DNA from: Escherichia coli
Lineage (GTDB): Bacteria > Pseudomonadota > Gammaproteobacteria > Enterobacterales > Enterobacteriaceae
Strand: one strand, 5' to 3'
Assembly: GCF_024502345.1 (NCBI RefSeq)
Contig: NZ_JALDNN010000001.1
Length of the DNA: 64,000 nucleotides
Part shown: in pieces, positions 10,920 to 50,266 of the stretch
Layout: each line of letters opens with the position of its first letter
Numbering within the stretch: position 1 is the stretch's first letter
Position numbers and translations under genes: made by a program
Notes under the pieces: model-generated
The model's input: the letters and a program-made list of their open reading frames with translations, nothing else
The model's database searches: none
What the model was told of the DNA's origin: nothing

Positions 10920-14272
<3,353 letters not shown>

Positions 14273-15486: not shown

Positions 15487-15837
15487 ATGCATACCTCCGA
15501 GTTGCTGAAACACATTTATGACATCAACTTGTCATATTTACTACTTGCACAGCGTTTGATTGTTCAGGACAAAGCGTCCGCTATGTTTCGTCTCGGCATA
15601 AATGAAGAAATGGCGACAACGTTAGCGGCACTGACTCTTCCGCAAATGGTTAAGCTGGCAGAAACCAATCAACTGGTTTGTCACTTCCGTTTTGACAGCC
15701 ACCAGACGATTACTCAGTTGACGCAAGATTCCCGCGTTGACGATCTCCAGCAAATTCATACCGGCATCATGCTCTCAACACGCTTGCTGAATGATGTTAA
15801 TCAGCCTGAAGAAGCGCTGCGCAAGAAAAGGGCCTGA
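15487..15837 (+). CDS. flhD: Flagellar master regulator FlhD
   Basis: Start [12 protein letters not shown] gives 116 aa; the track ORF begins 9 nt upstream at GTG. Confidence 0.95.
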
Positions 15838-15839
15838 TC

Positions 15840-16418
15840 ATGAGTGAAAAAAGCATTGTTCAGGAAGCGCGGGATATTCAGCTGGCAATGGAATTGATCA
15901 CCCTGGGCGCTCGTTTGCAGATGCTGGAAAGCGAAACACAGTTAAGTCGCGGACGCCTGATAAAACTTTATAAAGAACTGCGCGGAAGCCCACCGCCGAA
16001 AGGCATGCTGCCATTCTCAACCGACTGGTTTATGACCTGGGAACAAAACGTTCATGCTTCGATGTTCTGTAATGCATGGCAGTTTTTACTGAAAACCGGT
16101 TTGTGTAATGGCGTCGATGCGGTGATCAAAGCCTACCGTTTATACCTTGAACAGTGCCCACAAGCAGAAGAAGGACCACTGCTGGCATTAACCCGTGCCT
16201 GGACATTGGTGCGGTTTGTTGAAAGTGGATTACTGCAACTTTCCAGCTGCAACTGCTGCGGCGGCAATTTTATTACCCACGCTCACCAGCCTGTTGGCAG
16301 CTTTGCCTGCAGCTTATGTCAACCGCCATCCCGGGCAGTAAAAAGACGTAAACTTTCCCAGAATCCTGCCGATATTATCCCACAACTGCTGGATGAACAG
16401 AGAGTACAGGCTGTTTAA
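15840..16418 (+). CDS. flhC: Flagellar master regulator FlhC
   Basis: 192 aa; starts 2 nt after the flhD stop. Confidence 0.96.
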
Positions 16419-16544: not shown

Positions 16545-17428
16545 GTGCTTATCTTATTAGGTTACCTGGTTGTTCTCGGTACAGTTTTCGGCGGTTATTT
16601 GATGACCGGTGGAAGCCTTGGAGCACTCTATCAACCCGCTGAACTGGTGATTATTGCCGGTGCAGGGATTGGGTCGTTTATCGTCGGCAATAATGGCAAA
16701 GCGATTAAAGGCACGCTGAAGGCGCTGCCGTTGCTGTTTCGTCGCTCCAAATACACCAAAGCAATGTATATGGATCTGCTGGCTCTGCTTTATCGGTTGA
16801 TGGCGAAATCGCGGCAGATGGGGATGTTTTCGCTGGAACGTGATATTGAAAATCCCCGTGAGAGCGAGATCTTCGCCAGCTACCCACGCATCCTCGCGGA
16901 TAGCGTCATGCTTGATTTTATCGTCGATTATCTGCGTCTGATTATCAGCGGTCATATGAACACCTTCGAAATCGAAGCCCTGATGGATGAAGAGATTGAG
17001 ACGCACGAAAGCGAGGCAGAAGTCCCGGCGAACAGTCTGGCGCTGGTCGGGGACTCACTTCCGGCGTTTGGTATTGTCGCGGCTGTAATGGGGGTCGTTC
17101 ACGCGTTAGGTTCAGCCGATCGTCCTGCCGCCGAGCTGGGTGCGCTTATCGCACATGCGATGGTGGGGACTTTCCTCGGCATTTTATTGGCTTACGGATT
17201 TATTTCCCCATTAGCGAGTGTTTTACGTCAGAAAAGCGCCGAAACCAGCAAAATGATGCAGTGCGTCAAAGTCACTCTGCTTTCTAATCTGAACGGTTAC
17301 GCACCGCCTATCGCCGTTGAGTTTGGTCGCAAAACGCTCTATTCCAGCGAACGTCCGTCGTTTATTGAACTGGAAGAGCATGTGCGTGCGGTGAAAAATC
17401 CGCAACAACAGACGACAACCGAGGAAGC

Positions 17429-17432
<4 letters not shown>
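16545..17432 (+). CDS. motA: Flagellar stator protein MotA
   Basis: 295 aa; GTG start. Confidence 0.95.
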
Positions 17433-20324
<2,892 letters not shown>

Positions 20325-20934: not shown

Positions 20935-20961
20935 TAAAGTTTCCCCCCTCCTTGCCGATAA
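20935..20961 (+). promoter_or_regulatory. Sigma-28 (FliA) class 3 promoter of the tar-tap-cheRBYZ operon
   Basis: TAAAGTTT-N11-GCCGATAA, an exact match to the FliA consensus. Confidence 0.9.
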
Positions 20962-24319: not shown

Positions 24320-25180
24320 ATGACTTCATCTCTGCCCTGTGGGCAAACGTCTTTATTGTTACAGATGACCGAGCGCCTGGCGCTTTCCGACGCGCATTTT
24401 CGGCGGATAAGTCAATTGATCTATCAACGAGCCGGGATCGTTCTGGCTGACCATAAACGCGACATGGTTTACAACCGACTGGTTCGTCGTTTGCGTTCGC
24501 TGGGAATGACGGATTTCGGTCATTATCTGAACTTGCTGGAATCTAATCAGCACAGCGGTGAGTGGCAGGCGTTTATCAATTCGCTGACCACGAATCTGAC
24601 GGCATTTTTCCGTGAGGCACATCATTTCCCTCTTCTCGCGGATCACGCACGTCGCCGTTCTGGCGAGTATCGCGTATGGAGCGCGGCGGCTTCGACCGGC
24701 GAAGAGCCGTACAGCATTGCGATGACGCTGGCTGACACATTGGGCACCGCGCCCGGACGCTGGAAAGTGTTTGCCAGTGATATCGACACCGAAGTGCTGG
24801 AAAAAGCCAGAAGCGGTATCTATCGCCATGAAGAGTTGAAAAACCTGACGCCGCAGCAACTGCAACGGTATTTCATGCGAGGGACGGGACCGCATGAAGG
24901 GCTGGTACGCGTGCGTCAGGAGCTGGCGAACTATGTTGATTTTGCCCCGCTGAATTTACTGGCGAAACAGTACACCGTGCCGGGGCCGTTTGATGCGATC
25001 TTCTGTCGTAACGTCATGATCTACTTCGATCAAAATACCCAGCAGGAGATTTTGCGCCGCTTTGTTCCGCTCCTTAAACCCGACGGATTGCTGTTTGCGG
25101 GTCACTCTGAAAACTTTAGCCACCTTGAGCGCCGCTTCACGCTGCGTGGTCAGACGGTGTATGCGCTAAGTAAGGATTAA
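24320..25180 (+). CDS. cheR: Chemotaxis methyltransferase CheR
   Basis: 286 aa. Confidence 0.96.
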
Positions 25181-25182
25181 CG

Positions 25183-26636
<1,454 letters not shown>

Positions 26637-27492: not shown

Positions 27493-28641
27493 GTGTCTGA
27501 CGAGAGCGACGACAAAACAGAAGCCCCCACACCTCACCGACTAGAAAAAGCGCGGGAAGAGGGGCAAATCCCACGTTCCCGTGAACTGACTTCACTGCTG
27601 ATTTTGCTGGTGGGCGTGTGTGTTATCTGGTTTGGCGGTGTGTCCCTGGCCCGTCGATTGTCGGGCATGCTCTCCGCTGGGCTGCATTTTGATCACAGTA
27701 TTATCAAAGACCCGAATCTGATCCTCGGGCAGATTATTCTGCTGATCAGAGAAGCCATGCTGGCGCTGCTACCGCTGATTAGCGGCGTGGTGCTGGTAGC
27801 GCTCATTTCTCCGGTCATGCTGGGGGGGCTGGTATTTAGCGGAAAATCCTTGCAGCCGAAGTTTTCCAAACTCAACCCGCTACCGGGCATTAAACGGATG
27901 TTCTCGGCACAGACTGGCGCGGAGTTGCTTAAAGCAATTTTGAAAACCATCCTGGTTGGCAGCGTGACGGGGTTTTTTCTCTGGCATCACTGGCCGCAGA
28001 TGATGCGCTTACTGGCCGAGTCTCCGATTACCGCCATGGGTAATGCGATGGATTTGGTAGGGCTATGCGCACTGCTGGTGGTGCTTGGTGTCATTCCAAT
28101 GGTGGGGTTTGACGTCTTTTTCCAAATCTTCAGCCACCTGAAAAAGCTGCGAATGTCGCGGCAGGATATTCGTGATGAGTTCAAACAAAGCGAAGGCGAC
28201 CCCCATGTTAAAGGACGGATCCGTCAGATGCAGCGAGCTGCCGCACGGCGTCGGATGATGGCCGATGTGCCGAAAGCGGATGTCATTGTCAATAACCCGA
28301 CCCACTATTCGGTAGCGTTGCAGTATGACGAAAACAAAATGAGCGCACCGAAAGTGGTCGCTAAAGGTGCAGGGCTGGTCGCGCTGCGCATTCGTGAAAT
28401 TGGCGCTGAAAATAACGTCCCGACGCTTGAAGCGCCGCCGCTGGCGCGAGCGCTGTATCGACATGCGGAGATTGGTCAACAAATCCCGGGTCAACTGTAC
28501 GCCGCGGTGGCGGAAGTGCTGGCCTGGGTCTGGCAACTGAAACGCTGGCGTCTGGCTGGTGGACAGCGCCCTGTACAACCTACTCATCTTCCGGTGCCGG
28601 AAGCACTGGATTTTATTAACGAGAAACCGACCCATGAGTAA
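27493..28641 (+). CDS. flhB: Flagellar export apparatus protein FlhB
   Basis: 382 aa; GTG start. Confidence 0.94.
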   Translation: MSDESDDKTEAPTPHRLEKAREEGQIPRSRELTSLLILLVGVCVIWFGGVSLARRLSGMLSAGLHFDHSIIKDPNLILGQIILLIREAMLALLPLISGVVLVALISPVMLGGLVFSGKSLQPKFSKLNPLPGIKRMFSAQTGAELLKAILKTILVGSVTGFFLWHHWPQMMRLLAESPITAMGNAMDLVGLCALLVVLGVIPMVGFDVFFQIFSHLKKLRMSRQDIRDEFKQSEGDPHVKGRIRQMQRAAARRRMMADVPKADVIVNNPTHYSVALQYDENKMSAPKVVAKGAGLVALRIREIGAENNVPTLEAPPLARALYRHAEIGQQIPGQLYAAVAEVLAWVWQLKRWRLAGGQRPVQPTHLPVPEALDFINEKPTHE

Positions 28642-30712
28642 TCTGGCCGCGATGCTGCGCCTGCCCGCAAACCTGAAATCGACACAATGGCAGATCCTTG
28701 CCGGACCGATTTTGATCCTGTTGATCTTGTCGATGATGGTGCTGCCACTGCCCGCATTCATACTCGACCTGTTGTTTACCTTCAATATTGCCTTGTCGAT
28801 CATGGTGTTGCTGGTGGCGATGTTTACCCAGCGCACGCTTGAGTTTGCTGCGTTTCCGACCATTCTGTTGTTTACTACGTTGTTGCGTCTGGCACTTAAC
28901 GTGGCTTCAACCCGTATCATTTTGATGGAAGGGCATACCGGCGCGGCGGCGGCAGGGAAGGTGGTCGAAGCGTTCGGTCACTTCCTCGTTGGTGGCAATT
29001 TCGCTATAGGTATCGTGGTGTTTGTCATTCTCGTGATCATCAACTTTATGGTCATTACCAAAGGTGCCGGGCGTATCGCAGAAGTGGGTGCGCGCTTTGT
29101 TCTCGATGGTATGCCGGGTAAGCAGATGGCGATTGACGCCGACCTTAACGCTGGATTGATTGGTGAAGATGAGGCGAAAAAACGCCGCTCCGAAGTGACT
29201 CAGGAAGCCGATTTTTACGGCTCAATGGACGGGGCAAGTAAGTTTGTTCGCGGCGATGCCATCGCCGGGATCCTCATCATGGTCATTAACGTTGTCGGCG
29301 GGTTGCTGGTCGGCGTGCTGCAACATGGCATGAGCATGGGACACGCGGCGGAAAGTTATACGCTATTGACCATTGGCGACGGTCTGGTGGCACAAATTCC
29401 GGCGCTGGTGATTTCTACCGCCGCGGGGGTCATCGTTACGCGTGTCAGCACCGATCAGGATGTTGGCGAGCAGATGGTGAATCAGCTTTTCAGTAACCCA
29501 AGCGTTATGTTGTTAAGCGCCGCCGTGCTCGGTTTACTCGGCCTGGTGCCTGGAATGCCGAACCTGGTATTTTTGCTGTTCACGGCGGGATTGCTCGGGC
29601 TGGCCTGGTGGATACGCGGGCGCGAACAAAAAGCGCCTGCCGAACCCAAACCGGTAAAAATGGCAGAAAATAATGCTGTAGTCGAAGCAACGTGGAATGA
29701 TGTGCAGCTGGAAGATTCCCTGGGAATGGAAGTAGGCTATCGGCTGATCCCGATGGTCGATTTCCAGCAGGATGGTGAGTTGTTGGGCCGTATACGCAGT
29801 ATCCGCAAGAAATTTGCCCAGGAGATGGGATTTCTGCCGCCAGTGGTGCACATTCGCGACAATATGGATCTGCAACCTGCCCGCTATCGCATTTTGATGA
29901 AAGGCGTGGAGATAGGCAGTGGTGATGCTTATCCGGGGCGCTGGCTGGCGATTAACCCTGGAACCGCTGCCGGGACGTTACCTGGTGAGGCGACCATCGA
30001 TCCGGCATTTGGCCTGAATGCTATCTGGATTGAAAGTGCGCTAAAAGAACAGGCGCAGATTCAGGGGTACACCGTGGTTGAGGCCAGCACGGTGGTGGCA
30101 ACGCATCTTAACCACCTCATTAGCCAGCATGCCGCAGAGCTGTTTGGTCGTCAGGAGGCGCAACAGCTGCTGGATCGCGTCGCCCAGGAGATGCCAAAGC
30201 TGACGGAAGATCTCGTTCCTAGCGTCGTCACGCTCACCACACTGCATAAAGTGCTGCAAAATCTCCTCGATGAAAAAGTACCGATTCGCGATATGCGCAC
30301 CATTCTCGAAACGCTGGTGGAACATGCGCCCATCCAAAGCGATCCGCATGAATTAACCGCCGTCGTGCGCGTAGCGTTGGGGCGAGCGATTACCCAGCAG
30401 TGGTTCCCCGGCAAAGATGAAGTCCATGTTATTGGCCTCGACACGCCGCTGGAACGTTTGTTATTGCAGGCGTTGCAGGGCGGGGGCGCACTGGAGCCAG
30501 GTCTGGCGGATCGTTTGCTGGCGCAAACTCAGGAAGCGCTATCCCGTCAGGAGATGCTGGGTGCGCCGCCAGTATTGTTGGTGAACCACGCGCTGCGACC
30601 ATTATTGTCTCGCTTCCTGCGCCGCAGCTTGCCGCAGTTAGTGGTTCTGTCGAATCTGGAACTGTCTGATAACCGACATATCCGTATGACAGCGACAATT
30701 GGCGGTAAATGA
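28634..30712 (+). CDS. flhA: Flagellar export apparatus protein FlhA
   Basis: Internal start MSNLAAMLRLP gives 692 aa; 8-nt overlap with flhB. Confidence 0.95.
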   Translation: MSNLAAMLRLPANLKSTQWQILAGPILILLILSMMVLPLPAFILDLLFTFNIALSIMVLLVAMFTQRTLEFAAFPTILLFTTLLRLALNVASTRIILMEGHTGAAAAGKVVEAFGHFLVGGNFAIGIVVFVILVIINFMVITKGAGRIAEVGARFVLDGMPGKQMAIDADLNAGLIGEDEAKKRRSEVTQEADFYGSMDGASKFVRGDAIAGILIMVINVVGGLLVGVLQHGMSMGHAAESYTLLTIGDGLVAQIPALVISTAAGVIVTRVSTDQDVGEQMVNQLFSNPSVMLLSAAVLGLLGLVPGMPNLVFLLFTAGLLGLAWWIRGREQKAPAEPKPVKMAENNAVVEATWNDVQLEDSLGMEVGYRLIPMVDFQQDGELLGRIRSIRKKFAQEMGFLPPVVHIRDNMDLQPARYRILMKGVEIGSGDAYPGRWLAINPGTAAGTLPGEATIDPAFGLNAIWIESALKEQAQIQGYTVVEASTVVATHLNHLISQHAAELFGRQEAQQLLDRVAQEMPKLTEDLVPSVVTLTTLHKVLQNLLDEKVPIRDMRTILETLVEHAPIQSDPHELTAVVRVALGRAITQQWFPGKDEVHVIGLDTPLERLLLQALQGGGALEPGLADRLLAQTQEALSRQEMLGAPPVLLVNHALRPLLSRFLRRSLPQLVVLSNLELSDNRHIRMTATIGGK

Positions 30713-31104
30713 TGAGAACCTTATTAGCAATATTATTGTTTCCGCTGCTGGTGCAAGCCGCCGGGGAGGGGATGTGGCAGGCAAGTAGTGTAGGAATTAC
30801 GCTAAATCATCGCGGTGAGTCGATGTCGTCTGCACCTCTTTCTACGCGACAACCTGCTTCAGGATTGATGACGCTGGTGGCGTGGCGGTATCAGCTTATC
30901 GGCCCGACACCTGCAGGACTGCGGGTTCGCTTGTGTTCGCAATCTCGTTGTGTCGAATTAGAGGGGCAGAGCGGAACCACCGTGGCCTTTTCCGGTATAG
31001 CGGCAGCAGAACCGTTGCGCTTTATCTGGGAAGTGCCTGGCGGTGGGCGGTTAATTCCGTCGCTGAAAGTACAACGTAATGAAGTGATTGTGAATTATCG
31101 CTGA
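30712..31104 (+). CDS. flhE: Flagellar protein FlhE
   Basis: 130 aa with signal peptide; ATGATG at 30709-30714 overlaps the flhA stop. Confidence 0.9.
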   Translation: MRTLLAILLFPLLVQAAGEGMWQASSVGITLNHRGESMSSAPLSTRQPASGLMTLVAWRYQLIGPTPAGLRVRLCSQSRCVELEGQSGTTVAFSGIAAAEPLRFIWEVPGGGRLIPSLKVQRNEVIVNYR

Positions 31105-31161
31105 AGGACAAAAAAAATTACGCGCTCGCGAGTATGTTTAATGACTCAGTGAAAAAGGCTG

Positions 31162-31209
31162 GATGTTTTGTTGCATTCATTTATCAGGAATAGCTTGCAA
31201 CAAAACATG
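31162..31209. terminator. Long hairpin between convergent flhE and yecT (putative bidirectional terminator)
   Basis: 13-bp perfect inverted repeat atgttttgttgca / tgcaacaaaacat with a 20-nt loop. Confidence 0.5.
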
Positions 31210-31224
31210 CCAAAAATATGTGAA

Positions 31225-31713
31225 TTATCCTCTTGTCAAAGGGCTTGGATAAAAATCTTCAGAGTTACGGTATAGCTGCAACTGGCGAGTTCGCGTATTG
31301 GTCTGTATGATCATACATGATAGCCATTCTGATTCAGAATAAGGGTCACTTAAATCCTGAACATCCTCATTTGAAAGGATTAATTCACATTCTTTGTCCC
31401 TAAAATCCAGCCAGGCTCGTTGTGATTTTTTAAGCAAGTTAAGTTGTTCGGTATCAGGTTTTTTTGCACCTGTGCGTGGCACTTGTTCTATATAACGATA
31501 AGCTTCACCATAAGCTTTATTTAATTGCGCATCGACGAGGTTGTATTCTTGTCGCAGACATGATTTGATCACGTTAATGTCAGTATCATCATCTGAATTT
31601 TTTTGCCAACAATCTTTGATGGCTGAAATGTCATGATCATTTACTATAACCGTATCTTCTGCGTAAGCCTGGCAAGAGATAATGCCTAATGTTAATACAA
31701 GAAATTTAAACAC
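31225..31713 (-). CDS. yecT: DUF1311 (LprI-like) periplasmic protein YecT
   Basis: 162 aa with signal peptide; matches K-12 YecT. Confidence 0.85.
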   Translation of the reverse strand: MFKFLVLTLGIISCQAYAEDTVIVNDHDISAIKDCWQKNSDDDTDINVIKSCLRQEYNLVDAQLNKAYGEAYRYIEQVPRTGAKKPDTEQLNLLKKSQRAWLDFRDKECELILSNEDVQDLSDPYSESEWLSCMIIQTNTRTRQLQLYRNSEDFYPSPLTRG

Positions 31714-34409: not shown

Positions 34410-35165
<756 letters not shown>

Positions 35166-35551
35166 TTTTTACCGTTGCATCATGTCGCCCAATATGATGC
35201 TTGCTCGTACCAGGCCCCTGCAATTTCAACAGGGGCCTTTTTTTATCCCTGAGCAGTATAAAAAACGAACGATTACCGTGATCTGTTGAGCGGGTGACAG
35301 TGAACATAGCGTTGTGCTAAAAATATTTTATATATTCACATTAATTATGGGATTTAAATTACTAAAACTAATAAATATATATTCTAAATAGCAACTGGTT
35401 ATTCCTTAGCAATTAATGATTACATTGTAATAAATCATATTCTTTATCGATTATTTCAGGCAGTGTTGTGCCGAATTATGCAAGCGGTTAATTCGTTGTA
35501 TATTTAATTATACAATGATTTCGGTGTTCTGGAATTTAATTAGAGGAATCT

Positions 35552-39157: not shown

Positions 39158-39262
39158 GCCTGATGCGCTATGCTTATCAGGCCTACATAGTCCCTGCAAT
39201 ATATTGAATTAGCAAGGTTTTGTAGGCCGGATAAGGCGTTCACGCCGCATCCGGCAGTAATA
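39158..39262. repeat. REP/BIME cluster
   Basis: gcctgatgcgctatgcttatcaggcctac and tgtaggccggataaggcgttcacgccgcatccggca units. Confidence 0.8.
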
Positions 39263-39270
39263 CCAGACCT

Positions 39271-41418
<2,148 letters not shown>

Positions 41419-41470: not shown

Positions 41471-42289
41471 TCAGAAAAGAGAAGATTGCTGTGGAATAGC
41501 CGGAACTGCTCCGATCTCTGGAAGCGTTTTACGTAAGTCTTCCCACAGGGTATGTACCAGTTCCGGGGCCTGGGCAATATCTGGCGTATGTAAAAAAAGA
41601 TAAGGCGTAGTGGTCTGATGCCACTGCGCTAATTTTTGTAACCAGACCTGAAATAATTCCCGGTTTTGCGTCATATCATCACTACCGATAAAACGGATCA
41701 GCGGATTTGTCGCCGTCAGTACAGCATGTACCGGAACTTTAGGTTTTTTTCGTTGAGCGTCGCGAATAGCTTCACTGTGTGGACGTGCTGCATGAACCGG
41801 GCGGCTGTCTAAAATCACCCGATTAACGCCGCGCTGATGTAAACCGCGATTAAGCGTTTGTTCCTCTTCCCCTTTGGCGAAAAACTGTGGATGGCGGACT
41901 TCCACACCATAATTAAATTCGCCAGGGAGAGAATCGAGAAAATGCCAAAGCGCAGGCAGCTCCCGTGGGCCGAATGTGGCAGGCAGTTGCAGCCAGTATT
42001 GCCCAATGCGCGGAGCCAACGGTGACATGCGGGTCAAAAATTCAGTCACTAAATCATCGCAATGTCGTAATGCTGCCTGATGCGAAATGGTCGCCGGAAA
42101 CTTAAAACAGAAGCGGAAGTCATCTGTGGTCTGTTCACGCCAGCGCAGGACAACCTCGGGTTTCGGCAGGGCGTAAAGCGTGGTGTTGCCCTCCACGCAG
42201 TTAAAGTGGCGGGCATACTCTTCAAGGCTGGTGATCCCCAACCGCACCCATTTAGGATGCGACCATTGCGGTAGACCGATGTAAATCAT
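41471..42289 (-). CDS. yecE: DUF72 protein YecE
   Basis: 272 aa. Confidence 0.9.
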
Positions 42290-49480: not shown

Positions 49481-50266
49481 TTAACTGGCCTGTTTTTTCA
49501 TCATACTGATAATAAACAATAGTGCAGCACATAGTACTACCGACGGACCCGCCGGCGTATCGTAAAATGCGGAAAAGGTTAAACCGCCAGTCACTGCCAC
49601 CATCCCCACCAAAACAGCGACACCAGCCATCTGTTCCGGCGTGCGGGCAAAGCGACGCGCAGTAGCTGCAGGAATAATCAGCAACGAAGTAATAATCAAC
49701 GCACCGACAAATTTCATCGCTACACCAATCGTCAATGCCGTCACCAGCATCAACAACAATTTCACGCGCTGTAATTTCACACCATCAACAAACGCCAGAT
49801 CCGGGCTAATCGTCATCGACAGCAAATTGCGCCATTGCCAGAACAAAATAGCCACCACGATGACCACGCCAATTGCAATAGAGATGAGATCTTCTGGCGT
49901 CACTGCCAGTAAATCACCGAACAGGTAAGCCATCAAATCAACACGAATGTTAGACATCAGACTAACGACCACCAGGCCCAGCGACAGGGCACTGTGCGCC
50001 ATAATCCCTAATAACGTGTCGATCGCCAGCTGTGGACGCTTCTCCAGCCATACCAGACCGCCCGCCAGCAGCAGCGTAACGGCAATTACCGCATAGAATG
50101 GATTCACGTCCAGCAACAAACCAAACGCGACACCAAGTAATGAGGCATGAGCCAGCGTATCACCGAAATAAGACATACGACGCCAGACTACAAACGAACC
50201 CAGCGGACCCGCGGCACAGGCGAGCATGATCCCGGCTAACCAACCGGGAAATAATAATTCAATCAT
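49481..50266 (-). CDS. znuB: Zinc ABC transporter permease ZnuB
   Basis: 261 aa. Confidence 0.95.

Follow-up and report, generated by a model that had tools for sequence, protein, structure and literature searches.

Close gene junctions in the flagellar, chemotaxis and neighbouring operons of Escherichia coli as an ordinary operon layout

The nine close junctions described here most probably (at roughly 0.8) represent the ordinary intra-operon layout of E. coli polycistronic mRNAs, a layout that allows partial translational coupling on top of de novo initiation. Short overlaps and coupling in E. coli operons are already known and well described, and two of the junctions listed below have been studied experimentally. 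The window, a stretch of 64,000 nucleotides, is E. coli chromosome with the gene order ara–ots–flhDC–mot–che–flhBAE … znu–zwf–eda. Its gene table was transferred from the RefSeq record NZ_CP195164.1, which is 99.9% identical, and each coding sequence was checked in the window for an intact start, stop and reading frame. All nine junctions named in an earlier note on this DNA were recovered by direct reading of the window, among them the 8-nt overlap of flhB and flhA. All nine pairs are same-strand neighbours, which would allow each pair to share one transcript, and flhBAE has been described as an operon (PMC11247099). The junctions and the flhBAE coding sequences are as follows (negative distances denote overlap; SD, Shine-Dalgarno sequence).

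12848..12873, + strand: otsB/otsA overlap of 26 nt (-26), ATG at 12848, TAA at 12871-12873, SD CAGGAG
15835..15842, + strand: flhD/flhC, 2-nt spacer (+2), flhD TGA ending at 15837, flhC ATG at 15840
17429..17432, + strand: motA/motB ATGA overlap (-4), SD GAGGAA within motA
25178..25185, + strand: cheR/cheB, 2-nt spacer (+2), cheR TAA ending at 25180, cheB ATG at 25183, SD TAAGGA within cheR
27493..28641, + strand: flhB coding sequence, 382 aa, GTG start, weak SD (-4.9 kcal/mol)
28634..28641, + strand: flhB/flhA 8-nt overlap ATGAGTAA (-8), flhA ATG at 28634-28636, flhB TAA at 28639-28641
28634..30712, + strand: flhA coding sequence, 692 aa, ATG start, almost no SD (-3.0 kcal/mol)
30709..30714, + strand: flhA/flhE junction ATGATG, candidate flhE starts at 30709 (ATGA, -4) and 30712 (TGATG, -1)
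30712..31104, + strand: flhE coding sequence, 130 aa, SD GGCGG inside the last flhA codons (-6.1 kcal/mol)
40239..40242, - strand: cmoA/cmoB ATGA overlap (-4), read from the window
42286..42289, - strand: yecD/yecE ATGA overlap (-4), yecD upstream, read from the window, yecE without SD (-2.9 kcal/mol)
50263..50266, - strand: znuC/znuB ATGA overlap (-4), read from the window

Of 25 close pairs, four have a distance of exactly -4 (P = 1.5e-4 against a null of uniform spacing from -30 to +60), and -4, -1 and -8 are the three overlap classes enriched in E. coli and across prokaryotes (PMC10666635, PMC12548453, PMC6728339). Same-strand pairs spaced at -8 to +6 nt make up 9/38 (23.7%) in the window and 707/2987 (23.7%) genome-wide in E. 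coli (PMC10666635). The overlap pattern is real and non-random, yet nothing special to this region. The claim that overlaps run throughout the flagellar and chemotaxis operons was overstated: within flhDC, motAB-cheAW, tar-tap-cheRBYZ and flhBAE, just 3 of 11 junctions overlap, and unrelated operons hold four of the seven overlaps of the window. An enrichment specific to the flagellar and chemotaxis operons (6/11 versus 3/14 of the other close pairs) is unsupported (Fisher P = 0.12).

On native E. coli gene pairs, termination-reinitiation operates at -8 to +6 nt (PMC6728339, PMC10666635) and drops steeply with spacing (PMC10666635, PMC12548453, PMC6728339). This range takes in eight of the nine junctions, with stop-to-start distances of -8, -4 (four pairs), -1 and +2 (two pairs). 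In general, the proposal that the junctions are consistent with translational coupling stands; otsB/otsA, at -26, is outside the efficient range. In the phase classes of PMC10666635, the otsB/otsA overlap belongs with -8 in phase 1. Coupling of cheR_cheB has been measured at 0.2-0.6, and cheB_cheY, cheY_cheZ and cheA_cheW were likewise measured as partially coupled, at 0.2-0.6 (PMC2716512). Coupling of motA/motB was reported by Van Way et al. 2000, as cited in PMC6728339. No direct coupling test of flhB/flhA, flhA/flhE, otsBA, cmoAB, yecDE or znuCB was found in the literature searched; the geometry of flhBA, flhAE, flhDC, cmoAB, yecDE and znuCB suggests that these pairs may be coupled as well. 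Four of five native -4 pairs are tightly coupled, and overlapping E. coli pairs show a 4.5-fold enrichment for heteromeric complex subunits (PMC6728339, PMC10666635). The native -4 pair bioBF shows zero coupling and initiates de novo (PMC6728339), and geometry alone is therefore no proof of coupling.

In the favoured explanation, a ribosome ending the upstream gene would sit over or beside the next start codon and could reinitiate there after termination, and its passage would keep the downstream initiation region unfolded. The expected outcome is partial coupling, added to de novo initiation at internal Shine-Dalgarno sites. SD strength is moderate at motB, cmoB, otsA, cheB, znuB and flhE (-5.7 to -6.9 kcal/mol) and lower at flhC (-4.4 kcal/mol); flhA and yecE are essentially SD-less, and the remaining downstream genes lie close to the median of the window. 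Termination-reinitiation pairs often, though not obligatorily, carry an SD within the upstream gene's 3' end. Within flhBAE, flhB would be a poorly initiated gene, given its conserved GTG and weak SD, with the flhA ATG placed 5 nt ahead of its stop codon and the putative flhE ATG having one base in common with the flhA stop. Since each FlhB calls for 9 copies of FlhA, which is also by far the more abundant protein, initiation at flhA is probably mostly de novo, and reinitiation from flhB would contribute only a minor share.

The stoichiometry of the export gate is FlhA9:FlhB1 (PMC9307174). In the EV9 proteome tables of Mori 2021, FlhA accounts for 2-3.5e-4 of proteome mass and FlhB was never quantified; FlhB equimolar to FlhA would be at a mass fraction of ~1.7e-4, and the excess of FlhA over FlhB depends in part on a low-copy membrane protein going undetected, possibly for technical reasons. 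In moles, CheB is present at ~1.5-2.1 times CheR (computed with molecular weights), FlhA:FlhE is ~1.5 (flhE at ~0.7 per FlhA), MotA:MotB is ~1.4 (motB at ~0.7 per MotA) and CmoB is at ~0.64 per CmoA by calculation. These abundances are those of the steady-state proteome, not synthesis rates, and znuB, znuC and otsA/otsB rows are not included. In these steady-state data, downstream output is no greater than upstream output for MotA/MotB, FlhA/FlhE and CmoA/CmoB, but is greater for CheR/CheB and apparently also for FlhB/FlhA. Reinitiation alone gives a maximum of one downstream protein per upstream protein, so that FlhA9:FlhB1 and the excess of CheB over CheR also require initiation de novo, which would be the main route at flhA and an added one at cheB. 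The flhE, motB and cmoB ratios would be within what reinitiation-type coupling could supply.

The flhB/flhA junction overlaps in 79/79 Enterobacterales loci, which are phylogenetically non-independent, with a distance of -8 in 74 and of -1 in 5. Changes occur between -8 and -1, which needs a frame change, and a spacer is present in 0/79 genomes. In all 79 loci the flhA ATG and the N-terminus that follows (M-A/S-N-L) can be aligned; codon 2 of flhA carries T at the wobble position in 77/79 loci and codon 3 either T or C, and the initiation region of flhA is predicted to be 63% unpaired. The flhB GTG start is found at the homologous position in 71/73 scored sequences.

At the flhA/flhE junction, the sequence AAATGATGAGA places the flhA TGA at 30710-30712 and contains two adjacent candidate flhE starts. 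The ATGA that the two genes were said to share is present, but the start of flhE that is annotated in RefSeq and conserved in relatives is the second ATG, at 30712, which makes the overlap a 1-nt TGATG. Relative to the flhA stop, the flhE start is at -1 in 54, at -4 in 9 and at +1 to +12 in 12 of 75 loci, so that wherever flhE is present among the 79 Enterobacterales genomes its start lies from -4 to +12 nt. The -1 start is aligned across the 28 sequences of the junction alignment, and the flhE SD in relatives is GGAGG (median -8.6 kcal/mol). For the pair written as yecE/yecD, the 4-nt overlap was likewise found, with the order reversed, since yecD is upstream of yecE.

Several other features of flhBAE were considered and set aside. 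A scan of the sequence found no promoter-like sites above background within flhB or flhA; no sigma-70-like site that could uncouple flhA from flhB lies inside flhB, the single such site, at 30686-30713, is below shuffle expectation, and sigma-28 has a single consensus match in the window, the tar promoter at 20935-20961. The terminator-like hairpin seen at 28590-28610, with TTTTATT after it and 24 nt before the flhA start, was rejected as a functional element, as the count of such hairpins is not above that of shuffles; its pairs fall on codon positions 1 and 2 of the conserved FlhB motif LPVPEALDF, without covariation. A programmed frameshift yielding an FlhB-FlhA fusion was also discarded, there being by eye no slippery heptamer in GAGAAACCGACCCATGAGTAA.

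Alternative readings of the nine junctions can be weighed against these data. A neutral origin of the overlaps, as a by-product of compaction of the genome and drift of stop codons, with downstream genes initiating independently and no regulatory effect of the overlap, is unlikely. The background frequency in the window, the position of otsBA beyond the efficient range, de novo initiation of bioBF and the mostly de novo initiation at flhA all agree with it, and conservation of the flhB TAA could follow from protein constraint, as this stop is made of the conserved FlhA codons 2-3. However, the spacings cluster sharply at -4, -1 and -8 instead of spreading, flhB/flhA toggles between -8 and -1 and has a spacer in none of the 79 genomes, the codon 2 wobble base is nearly fixed while that of codon 3 varies, and coupling has been shown for cheRB and reported for motAB. 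Strict 1:1 termination-reinitiation, in which all downstream protein would come from ribosomes just off the upstream gene and the overlaps would fix stoichiometry, is highly improbable. Enrichment of overlapping pairs for complex subunits, the tight coupling of most native -4 pairs and the compatible MotB, FlhE and CmoB levels favor it, but the complexes themselves are not 1:1, being FlhA9:FlhB1 and MotA5:MotB2. Moreover, FlhA is abundant with FlhB undetected, CheB exceeds CheR, and measured che coupling is only partial.

A hairpin that hides the downstream start or SD until opened by upstream translation, as in atpHA, is very unlikely to explain the junctions. In the E. coli sequence, the flhE SD and AUG are within a stem (z = -1.77), as is the yecE AUG, and the motB initiation region is enclosed by the 8-bp stem GACGACAA/UUGUCGUC (z = -1.93); nevertheless, single-sequence z-scores range from -1.93 to +0.91, none past -2, and prediction leaves the initiation region of flhA largely unpaired. 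RNAalifold with 26-28 relatives detected no conserved mRNA structure at flhB/flhA or flhA/flhE (-0.21 and -0.23 kcal/mol, no compensatory pairs). That the overlaps are annotation artefacts arising from wrong start codons is hardly credible: the two ATGs of flhE are adjacent and an upstream GTG (28559) opens the longest flhA ORF, but N-terminal conservation speaks against misannotated starts, the flhE -1 start is aligned in relatives, RefSeq coordinates agree, and the OtsA N-terminus begins at the overlapping ATG. A more specific proposal, considered quite unlikely, is that the flhB-flhA junction is a conserved device for unequal rather than 1:1 stoichiometry, acting through neither SD-driven initiation nor simple reinitiation. 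The features kept together across Enterobacterales are the flhB GTG and weak SD, the invariant 8-nt (or 1-nt) overlap and the SD-poor, unstructured flhA ATG. If this proposal were true, flhA would be translated ~9-fold more than the flhB that it overlaps, possibly by each flhB-terminating ribosome licensing several de novo initiations at flhA or, alternatively, by A-rich, S1-dependent loading.

The ordinary intra-operon layout has little significance beyond confirmation, with the caution that overlap does not equal 1:1 coupling. The flhB/flhA junction is a good natural test case for reinitiation versus de novo initiation at overlapping genes, because flhB, the gene that flhA overlaps, encodes a protein needed at one-ninth the level of FlhA.

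Known systems resemble these junctions to different degrees. In the atpHA type (Rex et al. 1994, as cited in PMC2716512), downstream translation depends on upstream translation, as in the coupling proposed here; according to that citation it needs inhibitory mRNA structure, whereas no conserved structure was found at flhB/flhA or flhA/flhE. The motA/motB coupling of Van Way et al. 2000, as cited in PMC6728339, concerns the same ATGA junction in E. coli. In the chemotaxis operons (Lovdok et al. 2009, PMC2716512), the identical cheR/cheB junction (+2 nt) and its neighbours were measured; those junctions are non-overlapping short spacers, and flhBAE, motAB and the metabolic pairs were not covered. 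The termination-reinitiation pairs (Huber et al. 2019, PMC6728339; Huber et al. 2023, PMC10666635; review PMC12548453) belong to a tested set that included no pair of this window, but they share identical spacing classes, ATGA, TGATG and ATGNNTAA. Where the pairs of the window have an SD, it lies in the upstream gene as in those pairs, and several of them likewise encode complex subunits (MotAB, ZnuCB, FlhBA). In contrast to them, flhA and yecE are without an SD, and FlhA must exceed FlhB.

All nine stop/start junctions listed in the earlier note are present in the sequence as described. Each was read in the window and is given below with its spacing, negative values denoting overlap in nucleotides and positive values a spacer between the upstream stop and the downstream start.

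Stop/start junctions in the window
12848–12873, otsB/otsA, −26
Stop end 15837, ATG 15840, flhD/flhC, +2
17429–17432, motA/motB, ATGA (−4)
Stop end 25180, ATG 25183, cheR/cheB, +2
ATG 28634, TAA 28639–28641, flhB/flhA, −8
30709–30714, flhA/flhE, ATGATG
40239–40242, minus strand, cmoA/cmoB, ATGA (−4)
42286–42289, minus strand, yecD/yecE, ATGA (−4)
50263–50266, minus strand, znuC/znuB, ATGA (−4)

The ATGA said to be shared by flhA and flhE does exist in AAATGATGAGA, but RefSeq places the flhE start at the second ATG (30712), giving a 1-nt TGATG overlap; since the flhA stop in most relatives is TAA, leaving only the −1 ATG for flhE, the second ATG is the conserved start. The order yecE/yecD was reversed, yecD being the upstream gene. 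To say that overlaps run throughout the flagellar and chemotaxis operons goes too far: they occur at 3 of the 11 junctions of those four operons (motAB, flhBA, and flhAE), the remaining junctions carry spacers of +2 to +45 nt, and the window's seven overlaps include four in operons unrelated to flagella or chemotaxis.

Gene coordinates were taken from the RefSeq annotation of strain G47-1 (NZ_CP195164.1), with a check of start codon, stop codon, and open frame for each CDS. Bases 28000–31500 are matched in 5,417 of 5,426 complete E. coli genomes, with G47-1 as the top match (99.9%); a 1-nt indel distinguishes the window from the G47-1 record between uspC and flhD. The gene order on this stretch of E. 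coli chromosome is yecA, araFGH, otsBA, flhDC, motAB-cheAW, tar-tap-cheRBYZ, flhBAE, argS, torYZ, cmoAB, and yecDE, continued by aspS, ruvCAB, znuCB/znuA, zwf-edd-eda, and, at the end, yebF. Just 5′ of yecA lie two adjoining nuclease-like ORFs (78–2404), one (346 aa) carrying a PD-(D/E)XK_4 domain and the other (393 aa) an Mrr_cat domain of the restriction-endonuclease type. This 2.8-kb segment, beside tRNA-Leu, is complete in only 212 of the 5,426 genomes and is therefore a defence-like accessory islet, variably present, at a hotspot linked to a tRNA gene; in its place, G47-1 carries an IS3 element along with other genes. Three Rfam matches pass the gathering score, all to known E. coli sRNAs: MicL (34937–35244, plus strand, within and 3′ of cutC), C0465 (20868–20945, minus strand, in the cheW–tar interval), and ES036 (CssrF; 39179–39221, minus strand, in the torZ–cmoB interval). 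The sole exact sigma-28 consensus in the window, TAAAGTTT-N11-GCCGATAA (20935–20961), lies 5′ of tar; the C0465 match overlaps it from the other strand.

Against a uniform spacing model, the junction pattern is beyond chance, both for spacing of exactly −4 (four of 25 close pairs, P = 1.5e-4) and for −1, −4, or −8 (six pairs, P = 1.3e-4). Against the genome background, which is the right comparison, it is not: 9 of 38 same-strand window pairs (23.7%) are spaced at −8 to +6 nt, and the genome-wide figure for E. coli is 707 of 2,987, or 23.7% (PMC10666635). Enrichment in flagellar and chemotaxis operons was not significant (6/11 versus 3/14 other close window pairs, Fisher P = 0.12). The phenomenon thus occurs at exactly the genomic background rate and is not particular to flagellar genes.

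The flhBAE junctions were compared in 80 Enterobacterales loci, one genome per species, with FlhA identities of 80–99%. In all 79 loci that take in the junction, flhB and flhA overlap, as ATGnnTAA (−8) in 74 and as TGATG or TAATG (−1) in five (two Erwinia, one Pantoea, and two Yersinia); a spacer was found in none of the 79. Because the switch between −8 and −1 alters the relative frame, indels at the variable FlhB C terminus have, on two or more occasions, brought the junction to another of the canonical geometries. The wobble position of flhA codon 2 doubles as the first base of the flhB TAA and is a T in 77 of the 79 loci (hand count); that of codon 3, just beyond the flhB stop, varies between T and C. 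For flhE, the start lies at −1 in 54, −4 in nine, and +1 to +12 in 12 of 75 loci, and thus within −4 to +12 nt of the flhA stop in all non-Photorhabdus loci examined. The five Photorhabdus loci (L073 and L075–L078 of the comparative set) have no flhE 3′ of flhA, and their flhA ends in TAG or TAA, no start codon lying nearby. A 285-aa antisense ORF (28063–28920, minus strand) spans the flhB/flhA junction, is absent from the RefSeq annotation, and most probably stays open only by chance, as it faces coding sequence.

Some of the weakest Shine-Dalgarno (SD) sequences at the 55 window starts belong to flhA (−3.0 kcal/mol to the anti-SD) and yecE (−2.9); motB, cmoB, otsA, cheB, znuB, and flhE have average ones (−5.7 to −6.9), and flhC has a weaker one (−4.4). 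The flhA SD of relatives ranges from weak to moderate (median −5.4, with no value below −7.4), and their flhE SD is mostly a strong GGAGG inside the FlhA codons I-G-G-K (median −8.6; GGCGG in E. coli). Of 73 sequences scored, 71 have GTG at the position homologous to the flhB start (27493), preceded by weak SDs, and two, both Serratia, have TTG; the overlapping flhA start is always ATG (loci L004–L083).

No conserved mRNA structure was found at flhB/flhA or flhA/flhE (consensus energies −0.21 and −0.23 kcal/mol, zero compensatory pairs), and single-sequence folds of the nine junction regions gave z-scores of −1.93 to +0.91 versus shuffles. The motB SD and start codon lie inside a perfect 8-bp stem, GACGACAA...UUGUCGUC (17411–17462), that pairs the end of motA with motB codons ~9–11; its 110-nt fold (z = −1.93; 9 of 200 shuffles equally stable, E. 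coli sequence alone) could play a part in the motAB coupling that has been described. A terminator-like hairpin, UCCGGUGC-CGGAA-GCACUGGA followed by UUUUAUU (28590–28617), lies in the flhB 3′ end, 24 nt 5′ of the flhA start. Such sites are no more numerous than in shuffles, the paired bases fall on codon positions 1 and 2 of the conserved FlhB motif LPVPEALDF, and covariation is absent; the hairpin is probably incidental.

Reinitiation can supply no more than one copy of the downstream protein for each copy of the upstream one. MotA:MotB (~1.4), FlhA:FlhE (~1.5), and CmoB/CmoA (~0.64, our own calculation) are within this ceiling. FlhB/FlhA and CheR/CheB do not fit it. In the export gate, nine FlhA subunits accompany a single FlhB (PMC9307174), and FlhA accounts for 2–3.5e-4 of protein mass under motile conditions in the Mori 2021 absolute proteome, where FlhB was never quantified; FlhB equimolar to FlhA would be ~1.7e-4, and other proteins were quantified near 1e-5, far lower. 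CheB exceeds CheR ~1.5–2.1-fold in moles (Mori 2021 EV9). These ratios therefore call for substantial independent initiation at cheB and at flhA, the latter despite its near-absent SD. The flhB GTG and weak SD, set against the flhA ATG, fit the 1:9 FlhB:FlhA stoichiometry; the conserved GTG and weak SD also fit deliberate under-translation of flhB by design, a suggestive point short of proof since the non-detection of FlhB may be partly technical. At otsA (−26), initiation is probably de novo at its own SD. The best-supported account is partial coupling via termination–reinitiation on top of de novo initiation, and the earlier interpretation, consistency with translational coupling, is broadly right.

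The term "translational coupling" was not found in the flhB/flhA/flhE literature searched. The stop/start overlap phenomenon itself is already known, as are the enriched classes −4, −1, and −8; "phase 1" takes in both −8, the shortest such overlap possible, and −26. Spacings of −8 to +10 nt are taken as predictive of reinitiation, which collapses within ~20 nt (Huber et al. 2023, PMC10666635). Coupling of 0.2–0.6 has been measured for cheR_cheB, cheB_cheY, cheY_cheZ, and cheA_cheW (Lovdok et al., PMC2716512). Huber et al. include motAB among coupled pairs already described, citing Van Way 2000, and found four of five native E. coli −4 pairs to be tightly coupled, bioBF being the uncoupled exception (PMC6728339).
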